Positions 4,131 through 43,883 of a DNA stretch of 64,000 bases are shown here, one piece after another. The notes under the pieces were generated by a model that was not told where the DNA came from, ran no database searches, and saw only the letters and a program-made list of their open reading frames with translations. Both the position numbers and the translations under genes were made by a program. Source of the stretch: Escherichia coli (GTDB taxonomy: Bacteria; Pseudomonadota; Gammaproteobacteria; Enterobacterales; Enterobacteriaceae); NCBI RefSeq assembly GCF_003790525.1, contig NZ_CP033635.1. One strand, given 5' to 3'. Position 1 is the first letter of the stretch, and the number at the start of each line of letters is the position of its first letter.

Positions 4131-5174
4131 ATGCGCTATCGCATTTTCCTTCTCTTTTTTTTCGCTTTGTTGCCGACGTCTTTGGTGTGGGCGGCACCAG
4201 CGCAACGGGCGTTTTCCGACTGGCAGGTCACCTGTAATAACCAAAACTTCTGCGTGGCGCGTAATACGGGCGATCATAACGGACTGGTGATGACCCTGAG
4301 CCGCAGCGCCGGGGCGCATACCGATGCCGTTTTACGTATTGAGCGCGGCGGGTTGAAGTCGCCGGATGCGTCTGAAGGGGAGATAGCGCCACGGCTGCTG
4401 TTAGATGGTGAGCCGTTGGCGTTAAGTGGTGACAAGTGGCGGATTTCACCATGGTTACTAGTAACCGATGATACGGCAACCATCACCGCGTTTTTGCAGC
4501 TGATTCAGGAAGGGAAGGCAATCACCTTACGCGATGGCAATCAGACCATTTCTCTGAATGGCTTAAAAGCGGCGTTGTTGTTTATTGATGCTCAGCAAAA
4601 GCGCGTTGGCAGTGAAACCGCGTGGATAAAGAAAGGGGACGAACCGCCGCTCAGCGTACCGCCCGCGCCTGCGCTGAAAGAGGTCGCGGTGGTTAACCCA
4701 ACGCCGACGCCACTCTCACTCGAAGAACGCAACGATTTGCTGGATTATGGAAACTGGCGGATGAATGGTCTGCGCTGCTCGCTTGATCCGTTACGTCGTG
4801 AGGTGAATGTCACTGCGCTGACCGATGATAAAGCACTGATGATGATTAGCTGTGAGGCAGGGGCCTATAACACCATTGATTTGGCATGGATTGTGTCGCG
4901 TAAAAAGCCGCTAGCCTCGCGCCCGGTTCGGTTGCGTTTGCCGTTCAACAACGGTCAGGAGACGAATGAACTGGAACTGATGAACGCAACATTTGATGAG
5001 AAATCGCGTGAACTGGTGACCTTAGCGAAAGGGCGCGGATTAAGCGATTGTGGCATTCAGGCGCGCTGGCGCTTTGACGGTCAGCGTTTTCGCCTGGTGC
5101 GTTACGCCGCAGAACCCACCTGCGATAACTGGCATGGGCCAGACGCCTGGCCCACGTTGTGGATCACCCGTTAA
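4131..5174 (+). CDS. ypfG: Secreted protein of unknown function (DUF1176-like)
   Basis: 347-aa ORF with N-terminal signal peptide (MRYRIFLLFFFALLPTSLVWA). Confidence 0.85.
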   Translation: MRYRIFLLFFFALLPTSLVWAAPAQRAFSDWQVTCNNQNFCVARNTGDHNGLVMTLSRSAGAHTDAVLRIERGGLKSPDASEGEIAPRLLLDGEPLALSGDKWRISPWLLVTDDTATITAFLQLIQEGKAITLRDGNQTISLNGLKAALLFIDAQQKRVGSETAWIKKGDEPPLSVPPAPALKEVAVVNPTPTPLSLEERNDLLDYGNWRMNGLRCSLDPLRREVNVTALTDDKALMMISCEAGAYNTIDLAWIVSRKKPLASRPVRLRLPFNNGQETNELELMNATFDEKSRELVTLAKGRGLSDCGIQARWRFDGQRFRLVRYAAEPTCDNWHGPDAWPTLWITR

Positions 5175-5213
5175 ACAAAATCCCAGATGCGCCCCTAAAA
5201 AGCGCACAGACTG

Positions 5214-5268
5214 TCTCCTCGCCCCTCTGGGGAGAGGGTTAGGGTTAGGGGAACATACAGCATCCGGC
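5214..5268. repeat. GC-rich intergenic repeat (boxC-like), copy 1
   Basis: Sequence cctcgcccctctggggagagggttagggttaggggaaca is near-identical to 18608-18650; sits between convergent ypfG and tktB. Confidence 0.5.
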
Positions 5269-5276
5269 GATCACCA

Positions 5277-14759: not shown

Positions 14760-14865
14760 TCACCCTGTGTGACGTCGATTCGGGCGTCACGCTCTCTCCT
14801 TTTTCATTTTACCTTCTGCGGAGGGTAGGGGGAGCTTTTACCTGAAATACGCCACGGAGGCGGGT

Positions 14866-15164: not shown

Positions 15165-16568
15165 ATGAATCAACAGGATATTGAACAGGTGGTGAAAGCG
15201 GTACTGCTGAAAATGCAAAGCAGTGACACGCCGCCCGCCGCCGTTCATGAGATGGGCGTTTTCGCGTCCCTGGATGACGCCGTTGCGGCAGCCAAAGTCG
15301 CCCAGCAAGGGTTAAAAAGCGTGGCAATGCGCCAGTTAGCCATTGCTGCCATTCGTGAGGCAGGCGAAAAACACGCCAGAGATTTAGCGGAACTTGCCGT
15401 CAGTGAAACCGGCATGGGGCGCGTTGAAGATAAATTTGCCAAAAACGTCGCTCAGGCGCGCGGCACACCAGGCGTTGAGTGCCTCTCACCACAGGTGCTG
15501 ACCGGTGACAACGGCCTGACCCTGATTGAAAACGCGCCCTGGGGCGTGGTGGCTTCGGTGACGCCTTCCACTAACCCGGCGGCAACCGTAATTAACAACG
15601 CCATCAGCCTGATTGCCGCGGGCAACAGCGTCATTTTTGCCCCGCATCCGGCGGCGAAAAAAGTCTCCCAGCGGGCGATTACGCTGCTCAACCAGGCGAT
15701 TGTTGCCGCAGGCGGGCCGGAAAACTTACTGGTTACTGTGGCCAATCCGGATATCGAAACCGCGCAACGTTTGTTCAAGTTCCCGGGTATCGGCCTGCTG
15801 GTGGTGACCGGCGGCGAAGCGGTAGTGGAAGCGGCGCGTAAACACACCAATAAACGTCTGATTGCCGCAGGCGCTGGCAACCCGCCGGTAGTGGTGGATG
15901 AAACCGCCGACCTCGCCCGTGCTGCTCAGTCCATCGTCAAAGGCGCGTCTTTCGATAACAACATCATTTGTGCCGACGAAAAGGTACTGATTGTTGTTGA
16001 TAGCGTAGCCGATGAACTGATGCGTCTGATGGAAGGCCAGCATGCGGTGAAACTGACCGCAGAGCAGGCGCAGCAACTGCAATCGGTGTTGCTGAAAAAT
16101 ATCGACGAGTGCGGAAAAGGCACCGTCAGCCGTGACTGGGTTGGTCGCGATGCGGCGAAAATCGCGGCGGCAATCGGCCTTAAAGTTCCGGAACAAACGC
16201 GACTGCTGTTTGTAGAAACCACCGCAGAACATCCGTTTGCCGTGACCGAACTGATGATGCCGGTGCTGCCCGTCGTGCGCGTCGCCAACGTGGCGGATGC
16301 CATTGCGCTGGCGGTGAAACTGGAAGGCGGTTGCCACCACACGGCGGCAATGCACTCGCGCAATATCGAGAACATGAACCAGATGGCGAATGCCATTGAT
16401 ACCAGCATTTTCGTTAAGAACGGACCGTGCATTGCCGGGCTGGGGCTGGGCGGGGAAGGCTGGACCACCATGACCATCACCACGCCAACCGGTGAAGGGG
16501 TAACCAGCGCGCGGACGTTTGTCCGTCTGCGTCGCTGTGTATTAGTCGATGCGTTTCGCATTGTTTAA
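15165..16568 (+). CDS. eutE: EutE, CoA-acylating acetaldehyde dehydrogenase
   Basis: 467-aa ORF; aldehyde dehydrogenase family; eut synteny. Confidence 0.92.
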   Translation: MNQQDIEQVVKAVLLKMQSSDTPPAAVHEMGVFASLDDAVAAAKVAQQGLKSVAMRQLAIAAIREAGEKHARDLAELAVSETGMGRVEDKFAKNVAQARGTPGVECLSPQVLTGDNGLTLIENAPWGVVASVTPSTNPAATVINNAISLIAAGNSVIFAPHPAAKKVSQRAITLLNQAIVAAGGPENLLVTVANPDIETAQRLFKFPGIGLLVVTGGEAVVEAARKHTNKRLIAAGAGNPPVVVDETADLARAAQSIVKGASFDNNIICADEKVLIVVDSVADELMRLMEGQHAVKLTAEQAQQLQSVLLKNIDECGKGTVSRDWVGRDAAKIAAAIGLKVPEQTRLLFVETTAEHPFAVTELMMPVLPVVRVANVADAIALAVKLEGGCHHTAAMHSRNIENMNQMANAIDTSIFVKNGPCIAGLGLGGEGWTTMTITTPTGEGVTSARTFVRLRRCVLVDAFRIV

Positions 16569-16578
16569 GGAGTAACCG

Positions 16579-17415
16579 ATGGCGCACGATGAACAATGGC
16601 TCACCCCACGTCTGCAAACGGCGGCAACGCTGTGTAACCAGACGCCCGCCGCGACGGAATCTCCGCTGTGGCTGGGGGTGGATCTGGGCACCTGCGATGT
16701 GGTGTCGATGGTTGTCGACCGCGACGGTCTGCCGGTGGCGGTATGCCTCGACTGGGCCGATGTGGTCCGCGACGGCATCGTCTGGGATTTCTTCGGTGCG
16801 GTCACCATTGTTCGTCGCCATCTCGACACCCTCGAGCAGCAATTCGGTCGCCGTTTTAGCCATGCGGCGACCTCTTTTCCTCCAGGTACGGACCCGCGTA
16901 TTTCCATCAACGTGCTGGAGTCTGCCGGACTGGAAGTGAGCCATGTACTGGATGAGCCAACCGCAGTCGCGGATCTGCTGCAACTGGACAACGCCGGTGT
17001 AGTGGATATCGGCGGTGGCACTACTGGTATTGCCATCGTGAAAAAGGGCAAGGTGACGTACTCGGCGGATGAAGCGACCGGCGGACATCACATCTCTCTG
17101 ACTCTCGCCGGAAATCGTCGTATTTCGCTGGAAGAGGCAGAGCAGTACAAGCGCGGTCACGGTGAAGAGATTTGGCCCGCGGTGAAACCGGTGTACGAAA
17201 AAATGGCGGACATTGTCGCCCGGCATATTGAAGGGCAGGGCATTACGGATTTATGGCTGGCGGGCGGCTCTTGTATGCAACCGGGCGTGGCGGAACTGTT
17301 TCGCAAACAATTTCCGGCGTTACAGGTGCATTTACCGCAGCACAGTTTGTTTATGACCCCGCTGGCGATCGCCAGTAGCGGGCGAGAGAAAGCGGAGGGG
17401 CTATATGCAAAATGA
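16579..17415 (+). CDS. eutJ: EutJ, actin/Hsp70-fold chaperone-like protein
   Basis: 278-aa ORF; eut synteny. Confidence 0.9.
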   Translation: MAHDEQWLTPRLQTAATLCNQTPAATESPLWLGVDLGTCDVVSMVVDRDGLPVAVCLDWADVVRDGIVWDFFGAVTIVRRHLDTLEQQFGRRFSHAATSFPPGTDPRISINVLESAGLEVSHVLDEPTAVADLLQLDNAGVVDIGGGTTGIAIVKKGKVTYSADEATGGHHISLTLAGNRRISLEEAEQYKRGHGEEIWPAVKPVYEKMADIVARHIEGQGITDLWLAGGSCMQPGVAELFRKQFPALQVHLPQHSLFMTPLAIASSGREKAEGLYAK

Positions 17416-18592
17416 ATTGCAGACCGCGCTCTTTCAGGCGTTCGATACCCTGAATCTGCAACGGGTAAAAACATTTAGCGTTCCACCGGTGACGCTTTGC
17501 GGTCCGGGCGCGGTGAGCAGTTGTGGGCAGCAAGCGCAAACGCGTGGGCTGAAACATCTGTTCGTGATGGCAGACAGCTTTTTGCATCAGGCAGGGATGA
17601 CCGCCGGGCTGACACGTAGCCTGGCCGTTAAAGGTATCGCCATGACGCTCTGGCCATGTCCGGTGGGCGAACCATGCATCACCGACGTGTGTGCAGCCGT
17701 GGCGCAGTTGCGTGAATCAGGCTGTGACGGGGTGATTGCGTTTGGCGGCGGCTCGGTGCTGGATGCAGCAAAAGCCGTGGCGTTGCTGGTGACGAACCCG
17801 GATAGCACGCTGGCAGAGATGTCAGAAACCAGCGTTCTGCAACCGCGCCTGCCGTTGATTGCCATTCCGACTACCGCCGGAACCGGCTCTGAAACCACCA
17901 ACGTAACGGTGATTATCGATGCGGTGAGCGGGCGTAAGCAGGTGTTAGCCCATGCCTCGCTGATGCCGGATGTGGCGATTCTCGACGCCGCATTGACCGA
18001 AGGTGTGCCGTCGCATGTCACGGCGATGACTGGCATTGATGCGTTAACCCATGCCATTGAAGCGTACAGCGCGCTGAACGCCACACCATTTACCGACAGC
18101 CTGGCGATTGGCGCCATTGCGATGATTGGTCAATCGCTGCCGAAAGCGGTGGGCTACGGTCACGACCTTGCCGCGCGCGAGAGCATGTTGCTGGCTTCAT
18201 GTATGGCGGGAATGGCGTTTTCCAGTGCGGGGCTTGGGTTGTGCCACGCGATGGCGCATCAGCCAGGGGCGGCGCTGCATATTCCGCACGGTCTGGCGAA
18301 CGCTATGTTGCTGCCAACGGTAATGGAATTTAACCGGATGGTTTGTCGTGATCGGTTTAGTCAGATTGGCCGGGCGCTGAGAACTAAAAAATCCGACGAT
18401 CGTGACGCTATTAACGCGGTAAGTGAGCTGATTGCGGAAGTCGGGATTGGTAAACGACTGGGCGATATTGGTGCGACATCTGCGCATTACGGCGCATGGG
18501 CGCAGGCCGCGCTGGAAGATATTTGTCTGCGCAGCAACCCGCGTACCGCCAGCCTGGAGCAGATTATTGGTCTGTATGCTGCGGCGCAATAA
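17405..18592 (+). CDS. eutG: EutG, iron-containing alcohol dehydrogenase
   Basis: 395-aa ORF; overlaps eutJ by 11 nt. Confidence 0.9.
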   Translation: MQNELQTALFQAFDTLNLQRVKTFSVPPVTLCGPGAVSSCGQQAQTRGLKHLFVMADSFLHQAGMTAGLTRSLAVKGIAMTLWPCPVGEPCITDVCAAVAQLRESGCDGVIAFGGGSVLDAAKAVALLVTNPDSTLAEMSETSVLQPRLPLIAIPTTAGTGSETTNVTVIIDAVSGRKQVLAHASLMPDVAILDAALTEGVPSHVTAMTGIDALTHAIEAYSALNATPFTDSLAIGAIAMIGQSLPKAVGYGHDLAARESMLLASCMAGMAFSSAGLGLCHAMAHQPGAALHIPHGLANAMLLPTVMEFNRMVCRDRFSQIGRALRTKKSDDRDAINAVSELIAEVGIGKRLGDIGATSAHYGAWAQAALEDICLRSNPRTASLEQIIGLYAAAQ

Positions 18593-18607
18593 AAGTGTAC
18601 GGACAGT

Positions 18608-18707
18608 CCCCTCGCCCCTTTGGGGAGAGGGTTAGGGTGAGGGGAACAGAGTCGCTCCGGTGCAAACAATTACCCTCACCCCGGTCCCTCGGCTTCCAGA
18701 GTGAGGG
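18608..18707. repeat. GC-rich intergenic repeat (boxC-like), copy 2, with additional inverted partial copy
   Basis: cccctcgcccctttggggagagggttagggtgaggggaaca matches copy at 5214-5268; downstream ccctcacccc is the inverse of gggtgagggg, so a long hairpin is possible; lies between eutG and eutH. Confidence 0.5.
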
Positions 18708-18761
18708 AAAAACCCACTTTCAGCATTGGCAATAAATAACAACTAACAGGGAGTAAAGGCG

Positions 18762-19988
18762 ATGGGAATTAACGAAATCATCATGTACATCATGATGTTC
18801 TTTATGCTGATAGCTGCCGTAGACAGGATCCTGTCGCAGTTCGGCGGTTCTGCTCGTTTCCTCGGTAAGTTCGGTAAAAGTATCGAAGGATCCGGCAGTC
18901 AGTTCGAAGAAGGCTTTATGGCAATGGGCGCTTTGGGCCTGGCGATGGTTGGTATGACCGCGCTGGCACCTGTTCTGGCCCACGTACTCGGACCGGTGAT
19001 TATCCCGGTTTACGAAATGCTCGGCGCAAACCCGTCAATGTTCGCCGGAACACTGCTGGCGTGCGATATGGGCGGCTTCTTCCTCGCCAAAGAGTTGGCG
19101 GGCGGCGACGTAGCAGCGTGGCTATACTCTGGATTAATTCTCGGGTCGATGATGGGGCCAACGATTGTGTTTTCCATTCCGGTGGCGCTCGGCATTATCG
19201 AACCTTCTGACCGTCGTTATCTGGCGCTCGGCGTGCTGGCGGGCATTGTGACCATTCCGATTGGCTGTATTGCCGGTGGTCTGGTGGCTATGTACTCCGG
19301 TGTGCAGATCAACGGTCAGCCAGTGGAATTCACCTTTGCGCTGATCCTGATGAACATGATCCCGGTACTTATCGTTGCGGTGCTGGTGGCGCTGGGGCTG
19401 AAATTCATCCCGGAAAAAATGATCAACGGCTTCCAGATCTTCGCCAAATTCCTCGTTGCATTGATCACCCTCGGTCTTGCCGCTGCGGTAGTGAAATTCC
19501 TCCTTGGCTGGGAACTGATCCCGGGCCTTGATCCTATCTTTATGGCCCCTGGCGATAAACCCGGTGAAGTGATGCGCGCCATTGAAGTTATCGGCTCGAT
19601 CTCCTGCGTTCTGTTAGGGGCGTATCCGATGGTGCTGCTGCTGACTCGCTGGTTTGAAAAACCGCTGATGAGTGTCGGTAAGGTGCTGAATATGAACAAT
19701 ATAGCGGCAGCCGGCATGGTGGCAACGCTTGCCAACAACATCCCGATGTTTGGCATGATGAAGCAGATGGATACCCGCGGCAAAGTCATCAACTGTGCCT
19801 TCGCCGTTTCCGCTGCTTTCGCCCTGGGCGACCATTTAGGCTTCGCGGCTGCCAACATGAACGCCATGATCTTCCCGATGATTGTCGGCAAGCTGATCGG
19901 CGGCGTCACGGCGATTGGCGTGGCGATGATGCTGGTACCTAAAGAAGACGCGAGCGCGGCTAAAACCGAAGCGGAGGCGCAATCGTGA
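18762..19988 (+). CDS. eutH: EutH, ethanolamine permease/facilitator
   Basis: 408-aa polytopic membrane protein (MGINEIIMYIMMFFMLIAAV). Confidence 0.9.
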   Translation: MGINEIIMYIMMFFMLIAAVDRILSQFGGSARFLGKFGKSIEGSGSQFEEGFMAMGALGLAMVGMTALAPVLAHVLGPVIIPVYEMLGANPSMFAGTLLACDMGGFFLAKELAGGDVAAWLYSGLILGSMMGPTIVFSIPVALGIIEPSDRRYLALGVLAGIVTIPIGCIAGGLVAMYSGVQINGQPVEFTFALILMNMIPVLIVAVLVALGLKFIPEKMINGFQIFAKFLVALITLGLAAAVVKFLLGWELIPGLDPIFMAPGDKPGEVMRAIEVIGSISCVLLGAYPMVLLLTRWFEKPLMSVGKVLNMNNIAAAGMVATLANNIPMFGMMKQMDTRGKVINCAFAVSAAFALGDHLGFAAANMNAMIFPMIVGKLIGGVTAIGVAMMLVPKEDASAAKTEAEAQS

Positions 19989-21388: not shown

Positions 21389-21399
21389 GGGAACGACTT

Positions 21400-22761
21400 A
21401 TGAAACTAAAGACCACATTGTTCGGCAATGTATATCAGTTTAAGGATGTAAAAGAGGTGCTGGCTAAAGCCAACGAACTGCGTTCGGGGGATGTGCTGGC
21501 GGGCGTTGCTGCGGCAAGCTCACAGGAGCGCGTGGCGGCAAAGCAGGTGTTGTCGGAAATGACCGTAGCGGACATCCGCAATAATCCGGTGATTGCCTAT
21601 GAAGATGACTGCGTGACGCGGCTGATTCAGGACGATGTTAACGAAACGGCCTACAACCAGATTAAAAACTGGAGCATCAGCGAACTGCGTGAGTATGTGC
21701 TGAGCGATGAAACCAGCGTGGACGACATTGCCTTTACCCGCAAAGGGCTGACCTCGGAAGTGGTAGCGGCGGTAGCGAAGATTTGCTCCAACGCGGACCT
21801 GATCTACGGCGCGAAGAAAATGCCGGTGATCAAAAAGGCCAATACCACCATCGGTATTCCGGGCACCTTTAGCGCCCGCTTGCAGCCAAACGATACCCGT
21901 GACGATGTGCAAAGTATCGCCGCGCAAATCTACGAAGGGCTTTCCTTCGGGGTGGGCGATGCGGTGATCGGCGTTAACCCGGTGACTGACGACGTGGAAA
22001 ACTTAAGCCGCGTGTTGGATACCATCTATGGCGTGATCGACAAATTCAACATCCCAACTCAGGGCTGCGTACTGGCGCACGTCACCACCCAGATCGAAGC
22101 GATTCGTCGCGGCGCACCGGGCGGGCTGATTTTCCAGAGTATTTGCGGCAGCGAAAAAGGGCTGAAAGAGTTTGGCGTGGAGCTGGCGATGCTCGACGAA
22201 GCGCGCGCAGTGGGTGCAGAGTTTAACCGTATCGCCGGGGAAAACTGCCTCTACTTCGAAACCGGACAAGGTTCGGCGCTGTCCGCTGGCGCTAACTTCG
22301 GCGCTGACCAGGTGACGATGGAAGCGCGTAACTATGGGCTGGCGCGTCATTACGATCCGTTTATCGTCAACACCGTGGTCGGTTTTATTGGGCCGGAGTA
22401 TCTCTACAACGACCGCCAGATTATCCGCGCGGGCTTAGAAGATCACTTTATGGGCAAGCTGAGCGGCATCTCTATGGGCTGTGACTGCTGCTACACCAAC
22501 CACGCTGACGCTGACCAGAACCTCAACGAAAACCTGATGATCCTGCTCGCCACCGCAGGCTGTAACTACATCATGGGGATGCCGCTGGGTGATGACATCA
22601 TGCTCAACTACCAGACTACGGCCTTCCACGACACCGCCACTGTGCGTCAGTTACTCAACCTGCGCCCGTCACCGGAGTTTGAACGCTGGCTGGAAAGCAT
22701 GGGCATTATGGCAAACGGTCGCCTGACCAAACGGGCGGGCGATCCGTCACTGTTCTTCTGA
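21400..22761 (+). CDS. eutB: EutB, ethanolamine ammonia-lyase large subunit
   Basis: 453-aa ORF; 11 bp after eutA. Confidence 0.92.
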   Translation: MKLKTTLFGNVYQFKDVKEVLAKANELRSGDVLAGVAAASSQERVAAKQVLSEMTVADIRNNPVIAYEDDCVTRLIQDDVNETAYNQIKNWSISELREYVLSDETSVDDIAFTRKGLTSEVVAAVAKICSNADLIYGAKKMPVIKKANTTIGIPGTFSARLQPNDTRDDVQSIAAQIYEGLSFGVGDAVIGVNPVTDDVENLSRVLDTIYGVIDKFNIPTQGCVLAHVTTQIEAIRRGAPGGLIFQSICGSEKGLKEFGVELAMLDEARAVGAEFNRIAGENCLYFETGQGSALSAGANFGADQVTMEARNYGLARHYDPFIVNTVVGFIGPEYLYNDRQIIRAGLEDHFMGKLSGISMGCDCCYTNHADADQNLNENLMILLATAGCNYIMGMPLGDDIMLNYQTTAFHDTATVRQLLNLRPSPEFERWLESMGIMANGRLTKRAGDPSLFF

Positions 22762-42403: not shown

Positions 42404-42411
42404 AAAAATGG

Positions 42412-42423
42412 CGCCGATGGGCG
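42412..42423. repeat. IS4 target-site duplication, left copy (cgccgatgggcg)
   Basis: Identical 12-mer directly flanks the other IS4 end at 43850-43861. Confidence 0.85.
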
Positions 42424-43849
42424 TAATGCCAGTCAGTTAAGCAACTGACTGGCTCTTTTTCGGGGCTGTGGGGTATTTCCAGGGCCTCTCCTTTACCACT
42501 CTCGGGAAGGCCCTTTCCCTTCTTGTCGGTAATTTCACAAGTTGTCCCATACTTGCAAGATCGCGCATCAGCTCCGGTATACGTCCCGGTGAAGCGCCCT
42601 GCAATGTCATCAGCATTCTCATCACCATTCCACATGATTCTGAGAAACTCAGTTGATTCGGCCAGTAACCTTTCAGATGTTCCGCCATTTTAATCATCTG
42701 ATATCTCACCAGATTATAAGCCAGTAAGACACCCCACAGCTCTTGCTCCACAAGCTCCGGTTTTTTACTTCTCAGCGTCAGCCTGCTCAGTTGCATCGTC
42801 TGTTTTATCTCCCTGTATCCCAGTTCGATTTCCCAGCGATGACTGTACAGATCCGCCATTTCTCCTCCGGGGAAGCGCATGGCGTCCGTCATCGACGTCA
42901 GCAGATGGCAGACTTTTCCTTTGCGCGTCACGGTCAGCAGGCGGGCTGTCACTTCATTTCCCAGTCCCGGCCACTTTTTTCGTGCCTGCGGGCTGGTTTT
43001 CAGCTTCACCAGATGATCGCCTTTACCCAGTTTTCTGATCTCTTCATATTGCGCTCCCTTTCTGAGAGGTATCATCCAGTGGCGGTGTTCTCCCGCCAGG
43101 CTCCAGGCATTTAACAGTCCCAGTGAGTAATAACCTTTATCCATTAACGTCAGAGTGTTATCGCCGGTTTGTTCTATAAGTTGCTCAGCAAGCTCATTTT
43201 CGCTGTTCTTCATCGTGCCGAAGGCTGCAGCCGTCAGCAGATGGCTGGTCAGTTCCATCTGGCAGACCATTTTGACCTGCGGGTAGAGCGCCGGGTTCCC
43301 GGCATGTGTCTGGCGGGGGAAGGCTGCATCGTTCTCTGGTGTATCCGGTGTGCGCCAGAACACACCATCGATGGCCAGCAGGGTCAGGCCGCACCAGTGC
43401 GGATGCGGCGTGGCGTTATGCCAGAGCTGCGCTGTTTTCGTGAACACGCGGCGGACAGCCTCACTTCCCAGGCGCTGGCGGGCCTGAATAACGGCACTGG
43501 GGGCAACGAAGGGGCGATTGCCCGGCAGCATGATGTCCAGGCGATTCACAATCTGGTGAAGAGGTTCTTTACGCTCAAGCGCCATGCCAACAATACACCA
43601 GACCATCATTTCGAGGGGAAGACGGCGCTTGCGTAGCGTTACAGTACCTGATTCGGCAAGGCAACGAGAGATGAGTTCGGGGTCGAGGTAATCCCCCAGA
43701 GAAGTCAGTGGGTTACGCAGAGAATCGTAACGGGATACCAGATCAAGAGCCTGTCCAATGTGCATAAAAAAATCCGGAAACAAGTGAGCGTTTCCGGATT
43801 CTTACACAGCCACTGGATCGGTCAACTGATCCTTAACTGATCGGCATTA
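42424..43849 (-). mobile_element. Insertion sequence IS4 (1426 bp), intact
   Basis: Terminal 18-bp inverted repeats taatgccagtcagttaag / cttaactgatcggcatta (16 of 18 match), single transposase ORF, 12-bp direct repeats. Confidence 0.92.
42437..43765 (-). CDS. insG: IS4 transposase (DDE family)
   Basis: 442-aa ORF from ATG 43763-43765 ([16 protein letters not shown]) inside the IS4 inverted repeats. Confidence 0.9.
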
Positions 43850-43861
43850 CGCCGATGGGCG
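43850..43861. repeat. IS4 target-site duplication, right copy (cgccgatgggcg)
   Basis: Identical to 42412-42423. Confidence 0.85.
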
Positions 43862-43883
43862 CCATTTTTCACTGCGGCAAGAA

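Follow-up and report, generated by a model that had tools for sequence, protein, structure and literature searches.

The eutG–eutH Spacer and Its Setting

In the stretch of Escherichia coli DNA analyzed here (64,000 nucleotides, the window), eutG (17405–18592, plus strand, stop codon TAA at 18590–18592) and eutH (18762–19988, plus strand, start codon ATG at 18762) are separated by a spacer of 169 bp, located at 18593–18761; the ends of the two open reading frames thus bear out the distance given in the original prediction. Gene names were taken from the RefSeq annotation of strain SMS-3-5, where the region is 100% identical to the window. In this annotation the remaining eut junctions are either overlaps or gaps of 9–45 nt, the exception being eutM–eutN with 106 nt; therefore, the description of the operon as mostly composed of tightly packed or overlapping genes holds, save at that one junction.

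The terminal part of the spacer, AATAAATAACAACTAACAGGGAGTAAAGGCG (18731–18761, plus strand), is common to all Escherichia alleles and has its homologue in the “empty” spacer (27 nt) of Citrobacter; it includes the eutH Shine-Dalgarno sequence GGGAG (18749–18753, plus strand).

Other features of the window are recorded here as separate observations. The eutM–eutN gap (14760–14865), the second-largest of the operon, contains a hairpin, GTGACGTC...GGCGTCAC, followed 9 nt later by a T-rich run and then by CCTTCTGCGGAGGG. The eutA and eutB genes adjoin, 11 nt apart (21389–21400); the CPZ-55 prophage, which is located between these genes in K-12, is absent from the window. Two 38-nt inverted repeats (42404–42441 and 43832–43869), 89% complementary and 1390 nt apart, flank a minus-strand open reading frame of 448 aminoacids (42437–43783).

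Identity of the Repeat

BoxC was reportedly described by Bergler in 1992 and by Bachellier, and the PIT elements are said to have been reported by Hoyne and Maher in 2000 and 2002. According to Holder et al. (NAR 2015, PMC4666352), BoxC, a repeat known from the 1990s, was rediscovered by Hoyne and Maher as “potential intrastrand triplex” (PIT) and was then renamed TMECO; the type of each element is set by its second loop, which is TTA in type A and CCG in type B. The repeat in the eutG–eutH spacer had been labeled BoxC-like from its sequence, and the label proved to be right: a regular-expression search with the TMECO consensus, CCCTCNCCC N3-6 GGGNGAGGG N3 GGGNGAGGG, found a match at 18609–18643 on the plus strand, and the 36-mer 18609–18644 is letter-for-letter identical to the K-12 TMECO entries 7, 11, and 15 (Table 1 of PMC4666352, “A mm”). 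Its second loop, at 18632–18634, is TTA, hence the core is of type A. The REP consensus, a GCCGGATGCGGCG-type head plus an inverted tail, gave no match inside 18593–18761 with up to 2 mismatches.

This very copy is also present in the published catalogue. Row 157 of Supplementary Table S8 of PMC4666352 lists the same sequence at 2652608–2652573 of NC_010498 (SMS-3-5); as the spacer maps to 2652624–2652456 of the SMS-3-5 genome, on the minus strand, the entry falls inside it and corresponds exactly to the eutG–eutH copy. Both the BoxC family and this member of it are, thus, already known and catalogued.

The recurrence of the repeat on the same strand after ypfG was likewise found: the 41-mer 18608–18648 occurs again at 5215–5255 with 3 mismatches, while none of 100 dinucleotide-preserving shuffles gave any match, and the similarity can be extended to 58 nt with 88% identity (5198–5255 versus 18591–18648). 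Both BoxC copies of the window are intergenic, and the spacer, when used as a query against complete E. coli genomes, is matched at a median of 7 places per genome.

Architecture of the Inverted Pair

The spacer holds an inverted BoxC pair, consisting of an intact type A unit followed by an inverted unit that is best read as a decayed type B copy. The left arm of the type A unit, AAAAGTGTACGGACAGTC (AAAAG.GCACAGACAGTC; 18591–18608, plus strand), shares its first two bases with the end of the eutG stop codon and is kept in the ypfG copy and in the K-12 BoxC pairs. The type A core (18609–18644, plus strand), which has one mismatched triplet, comprises a C arm (18609–18618), a TTT loop (18619–18621), a G arm (18622–18631), the TTA loop (18632–18634), and a second G arm (18635–18644). 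A linker of sequence AACAGAGTCGCTCCGGTGCAAACAATTA (18645–18672, plus strand), homologous to the linker of the K-12 A+B pairs, leads to the type B copy (18673–18707, minus strand), which reads CCCTCACTCTGGAAGCCGAGGGACCGGGGTGAGGG on that strand and has CCG as second loop. This copy contains one extra base and its inner hairpin is disrupted; the loop is also in flipped orientation, being TTCCA here versus TGGAA in the K-12 pairs in the same reading orientation. Since the sequence fails the TMECO consensus even when 4 substitutions are allowed, it is to be regarded as a decayed copy.

The right-hand remainder of the insert, AAAAACCCACTTTCAGCATTGGC (18708–18730, plus strand), forms a short A-rich end and is found in E. 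coli only at the eutG–eutH locus; its terminal part, CAGCATTGGC, weakly resembles a REP tail (CAGCATCCGGC). No donor paralogue was found in E. coli genomes for the right half of the spacer, as the segment 18645–18735 is single-copy and confined to this locus. The left arm, the cores, and the linker can be aligned with three K-12 pairs, fepB–entC, ygfF–gcvP, and alx–sstT; inverted A+B pairs are described at five K-12 loci, and they always associate a type A with a type B element (PMC4666352).

The Junction in E. coli and in Other Enterobacteria

The window-type spacer is present in 303 of 5426 complete E. coli genomes (~6%), and all the others have the same flanks with a matched span of varying length. 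The content of the alternative spacers was read from the sequences of six strains: O157:H16 Santai has a spacer of 99 nt with a single decayed REP pair, while the other five, with spacers of 116, 216 (K-12), 316, 416, and 516 nt, contain head-to-tail REP/BIME units that increase in 100-bp steps. A further BIME-type spacer, of 578 nt, was found in E. coli SCPM-O-B-8794. The BIME-type alleles represent a copy-number polymorphism of a 100-bp unit, ranging from 1 to 6 units, and they share their borders with the BoxC allele: in both types the insert lies between ...GCGCAATAAA on the left and AATAAATAACAACTAACAGGGAGTAAAGGCG, directly followed by the ATG of eutH, on the right.

The EutH loci of 50 genomes were surveyed and their spacers extracted. 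Six Citrobacter genomes (C. braakii and others) have a junction of 27 nt, a homologue of the 3′ segment that is conserved in the E. coli spacer; the junction is 32 nt long in Yokenella and Pluralibacter, and 34–48 nt in Hafnia, Morganella, and Buttiauxella. In other Citrobacter genomes it is occupied by genus-typical REPs, in spacers of 60–163 nt with at least three different arrangements; genus-typical REPs also fill it in Klebsiella (170–216 nt), Pseudocitrobacter (123 nt), and Salmonella diarizonae (67 nt, one REP). BIMEs are located at the junction in E. whittamii (116 nt), Escherichia sp. E1V33 (315 nt), and MOD1-EC7003 (474 nt). No TMECO element was detected in any of the outgroup spacers extracted from these loci, which indicates that within Escherichia the BIME is the older state and the BoxC pair the derived one. 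Wherever repeats are present, they abut the eutG stop codon and spare the last ~30 nt with the Shine-Dalgarno sequence; the junction has thus been colonized repeatedly by palindromic repeats.

The original prediction had named the absence of the repeat from the eut operons of other strains, if not accompanied by differences in expression, as a finding that would speak against its role, and the absence as such was observed in ~94% of the complete E. coli genomes and in every other species examined. As REP/BIME sequences or an empty junction are found in place of BoxC in most genomes, the spacer has the features of a permissive landing site for palindromic repeats, and the element is dispensable for the eut operon.

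These data also bear on the possibility that the junction hosts a selected intercistronic RNA element, in which a strong hairpin 3′ of eutG would be maintained by selection and the BoxC pair would substitute for the BIME array; such an element would set the ratio between the products of eutS–eutG (shell proteins and enzymes) and EutH, EutA, and the EutBC lyase, through mRNA decay or translational uncoupling. The filling of the junction by unrelated palindromes in Escherichia, Citrobacter, Klebsiella, Salmonella, and Pseudocitrobacter, always with the Shine-Dalgarno end intact, is in line with this proposal; however, the short junctions of the six Citrobacter genomes and of Yokenella, Pluralibacter, Hafnia, Morganella, and Buttiauxella (27–48 nt) are devoid of any such element, and the variation of BIME copy number from 1 to 6 among strains is not what would be expected of a tuned element. 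Moreover, REPs follow stop codons throughout the genome, so that their location at this junction needs no special selection.

Diversity of the BoxC Allele and of Its Flanks

Six strains with the BoxC allele were compared, namely the window, LF82, strain 20, ETEC1738, Ec42, and EC476. Their spacers differ at 0–3 positions, and at two positions the window alone departs from the common haplotype, with T instead of G at 18656 and T instead of C at 18685. Averaged over all pairs of the six strains, the sequences differ by ~0.6% in the spacer; the corresponding values for the adjoining 300-nt segments are 6.1% at the end of eutG and 2.8% at the start of eutH. The comparison between Ec42 and EC476 is illustrative: their spacers are identical (0 differences in 169 nt), while the flanks differ at 42 of 600 positions, 32 of which are in the last 300 nt of eutG and 10 in the first 300 nt of eutH; at the rate of the flanks, the spacer would be expected to show about 12 differences.

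The flanks are mosaic, and their similarities do not follow the spacer type, LF82 (BoxC) being closest to MSB2_1A, which contains five BIME units. Over the last 300 nt of eutG, divergence between two E. coli strains reaches 10.7%, and the last 27 nt of the gene occur as two haplotypes, ATTATTGGTCTGTATGCTGCG and ATTGTCGGCCTGTACGCAGCG, distinguished by five changes within 21 nt (18566–18586), one of which replaces V with I. The first haplotype was found in four of the six BoxC-allele strains and in none of the BIME strains examined, the other two BoxC strains having the alternative one.

The simplest reading of these sequence comparisons is that the BoxC allele is young, that it had a single origin and that it was moved between lineages by short recombination tracts. 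Alternatively, the low diversity of the spacer could reflect constraint, and the near-invariance of the allele amid mosaic flanks would then count in favor of the selected RNA element considered above.

The ypfG–tktB Copy and the K-12 Pair Loci

The other BoxC copy of the window is a solo type A unit (5198–5255, plus strand), which aligns over 58 nt with 18591–18648 and is located between ypfG (4131–5174, plus strand) and tktB, the convergent transketolase gene on the minus strand. As its third arm is GGGTTAGGGG, the copy fails the strict TMECO consensus. The spacer between the two genes (5175–5276) is dimorphic: 857 of 5426 genomes contain the BoxC solo unit, and the others have a REP between the same borders. 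The REP alleles include one to three tandem 19-nt partial duplications (GTAGGCCGGATAAGACGCT), with spacers of 76, 94, and 113 nt, and the right border, CAGCATCCGGCGATCACCA, which resembles a REP tail, is retained in both alleles.

Both sites of the window suggest that BoxC units may integrate into, or replace, REPs, which, if true, would provide a first clue to how BoxC moves; the alternation of REP and BoxC at the two sites can in this respect be considered an inexpensive lead on BoxC mobility. The replacement of REPs by BoxC was also considered as a general rule and was discarded, as a simple REP swap was found at none of the three K-12 pair loci examined. At fepB–entC, K-12 has a clean insertion of 186 nt, which includes the pair, relative to the empty site of O145 RM8995, with TAA on both sides. 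At alx–sstT, strain AVS0710 retains only a plain hairpin, the third arm of A having been deleted together with the linker and the B copy, and NDM6 has an unrelated insert of ~430 nt in place of the pair; the alternative allele of ygfF–gcvP is a block indel that comprises ygfF itself. Since the alternatives at these loci are not REPs, the alternation is retained as an observation and not as a rule; in addition, REPs are common after stop codons, thus its occurrence at two of the two window sites is not significant.

About 25 nt outside the core, the K-12 pairs have TGATGACAA in common in their extended left arms, and for this reason the mobile unit may exceed the 56 bp of BoxC.

Predicted RNA Structure and Transcription

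In the predicted RNA fold of the spacer a hairpin of 10 bp is formed at 18609–18631, a long-range helix of 9 bp joins 18635–18643 with 18673–18681, and a weaker third helix pairs CUUCC with the eutH Shine-Dalgarno sequence. The pairing that had been proposed for the inverted partial copy was recovered, since CCCTCACCCC (18673–18682) pairs with GGGTGAGGG (18635–18643) in the minimum-energy fold. The predicted energies are −23.7 kcal/mol for a segment of 46 nt and −51.0 kcal/mol for 121 nt. The long hairpin potential attributed to the spacer is therefore large in absolute terms, but it is only modestly above that of dinucleotide shuffles, with z values of −2.35 (46 nt) and −1.91 (121 nt), since tracts of C and G fold readily whatever their order; a single BIME unit of another strain gives z = −5.65.

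Two further structures were evaluated and set aside. Occlusion of the eutH Shine-Dalgarno sequence by CUUCC is at best weakly hinted at by the folding model, in which this sequence is unpaired at a predicted level of 0.28 in the BoxC allele versus 0.52–0.61 in the BIME alleles, a small gap in accessibility (0.28 versus ~0.55), with z = −1.8 for the whole spacer. A canonical G-quadruplex motif is located at 18622–18644; the 64-kb window contains three motifs of this kind, and the BoxC copies account for two of them. However, as the main RNA structure the quadruplex is disfavored by its predicted energy, −12.6 versus −23.7 kcal/mol for the hairpin. The third motif of the window, GGGCTGGGGCTGGGCGGGG (16437–16455), lies in the eutE coding region.

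The original prediction had also raised the possibility of a partial terminator, which was considered here as Rho-independent or partial termination between eutS–eutG and eutH–eutR. The GC-rich stems that such a function would require are present; however, neither of them is followed by a T/U run (GGGGAACAGAG and CCCCGGTCCC, respectively), and a promoter and terminator scan did not identify any terminator-like or promoter-like site within the spacer. Rfam covariance models gave nothing at gathering score in the spacer, the only two matches being at chance level (E 0.3–0.5). The functional study by Hoyne and Maher, as summarized by Holder et al. (PMC4666352), detected neither promoter nor terminator activity, nor any influence on RNA polymerase in vivo. 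Together, these negative results disfavor a terminator role, and we consider it very improbable. In the absence of a U-tract, transcription should read through into eutH; given that no promoter-like site was found in the spacer, eutH and the downstream lyase genes depend on this read-through.

An effect on the stability of the transcript is conceivable on general grounds: any stable hairpin can block 3′-exonucleases, and it is possible that the spacer acts as a generic intercistronic hairpin. A literature search retrieved nothing relevant on REPs or processing data for eutG–eutH. As regards REPs in general, it is summarized in one study that they stabilize mRNA and that they reduce translation of the upstream gene when located less than 16 nt from its stop codon (PMC12306157). 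At the eutG–eutH junction, BIMEs start 2 nt after the eutG stop codon and the BoxC hairpin 14–16 nt after it, at the edge of this distance rule.

These points can be added to the evidence on the selected intercistronic element, as strong hairpins are predicted in both allele types and the BIME and BoxC distances lie, respectively, within and at the edge of that reported for the REP effect on translation. On the other hand, the z values of the BoxC folds are unremarkable, and the PIT elements were devoid of terminator effect in the tests that Holder et al. summarize (PMC4666352). Weighed together with the element-free junctions of other genera and with the variable BIME copy number, this evidence makes the selected element an unlikely explanation, although one to be kept in mind.

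DNA Structure and Variability of the Locus

At the DNA level, type A elements with one mismatch form an intrastrand purine-motif triplex in vitro, as determined by CD and NMR, with a Tm of 74 °C; NMR ruled out a G-quadruplex for the DNA oligonucleotide, which adopted the triplex instead, and polymerases stop at the motif (PMC4666352). According to the same authors, purine-motif triplexes do not form in RNA. In the window, the core is located on the plus strand, which serves as lagging-strand template in replication and is non-template in transcription; the GC skew of this strand is +0.04. The core of the eutG–eutH copy could fold, as DNA, into the triplex on the non-template, lagging-strand template strand, and this position would fit the marked structural variability of the locus.

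On this basis the triplex core might act as a replication or recombination hot spot, and both the BoxC allele and its mosaic surroundings might result from structure-induced instability, which, as Holder et al. speculate, may even be adaptive (PMC4666352). Besides the in vitro triplex, the polymerase stop, and the location of the core on the lagging-strand template, this role would be consistent with the published finding that TMECO loci are more rearranged than control intergenic regions (PMC4666352), and with the mosaic flanks, the diversity of the eutG 3′ end and its five substitutions within 21 nt beside the element. However, the junction is equally variable in the BIME strains, which have the 100-bp VNTR and no BoxC; the variability is, therefore, independent of the triplex motif and not specific to BoxC. 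Furthermore, in vivo DMS footprinting did not detect the triplex in cells (PMC4666352), and mobile or recombining repeats would account for variability in their vicinity equally well. A DNA-level role is, for these reasons, quite unlikely to explain the locus.

Proposed Origin and Significance

The carriage of the BoxC pair by ~6% of the genomes, and the presence of ordinary REP repeats at the same spot in the rest, indicate that the element is most likely a passenger and not a control element of the operon. We consider it probable that the pair is a passenger at a junction tolerant of insertions, and that its influence on the eut mRNA does not go beyond the generic effects of a hairpin. BoxC is a non-coding interspersed repeat family of E. 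coli, a pair of which lies directly 3′ of the eutG stop codon; the resulting allele is a derived minority allele of the species and would not be a built-in control element of eut. The hairpins, lacking a U-tract, would allow read-through into eutH, and the expected consequences of the insertion would be some protection of the upstream eutS–eutG segment from 3′-exonucleases and a loss of translational coupling between eutG and eutH.

Among the points that run counter to the passenger interpretation are the lower predicted accessibility of the eutH Shine-Dalgarno sequence in the BoxC allele and the fact that stable palindromes have settled repeatedly at the junction in several genera, where a hairpin could be under selection. 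In the most far-reaching form of the latter idea, unrelated repeats (BoxC in one class of E. coli alleles, and several types of REP in four genera or more) would have been recruited independently and convergently to the same position, where they would tune the ratio between upstream and downstream products; if so, the near-invariance of the BoxC allele would reflect selection. We regard this convergent scenario as speculative and distinctly improbable.

Under the passenger interpretation, the finding in itself matters little, as it concerns one more listed copy of a family known since 1992, the function of which has resisted direct tests. The junction may be of greater use than the element: its three states across enterobacteria, namely empty, REP/BIME with the 100-bp copy-number polymorphism, and BoxC pair, constitute a natural allelic series, which could be exploited to test the effects of intercistronic palindromes on segmental mRNA stability and translation in the eut operon, a system relevant to gut colonization and virulence.

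Comparison with Known Systems

An intercistronic stabilizer hairpin is reportedly formed by the malE–malF REP (Newbury et al. 1987). The eut spacer shares with it a stable stem-loop between cistrons of one operon, which may act as a barrier to 3′-exonucleases; the two cases differ in that an effect of the eut spacer is suggested by analogy only. With MITEs, BoxC has in common the small size, the non-coding nature, and the presence/absence polymorphism, but it has neither established terminal inverted repeats matching a known transposase nor a consistent target duplication.

The closest similarity is with the BoxC/PIT/TMECO family itself. The 36-nt core is identical to the type A one-mismatch class and is intergenic, and it is part of an inverted A+B pair with a 28-nt linker, resembling the K-12 pairs at fepB–entC (26-nt gap), ygfF–gcvP, and alx–sstT. 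Unlike these, the eut type B partner is decayed and no longer matches the consensus, and the eut copy lies inside a polycistronic operon, 16 nt past a stop codon. The family description (PMC4666352) does not mention alleles in which a BIME array takes the place of the pair between the same borders, as found at the eutG–eutH junction.

As for REP/BIME sequences, BoxC has no sequence similarity to them, and it is built of three arms (C-G-G) and is capable of triplex formation. REPs have a cognate transposase family (RAYT), whereas, to our knowledge, no cognate transposase is known for BoxC. Nevertheless, both are short GC-rich palindromes found right after stop codons and able to form stable RNA hairpins, and REP/BIME sequences occupy exactly the eutG–eutH junction in ~94% of the E. 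coli genomes and also in other genera.
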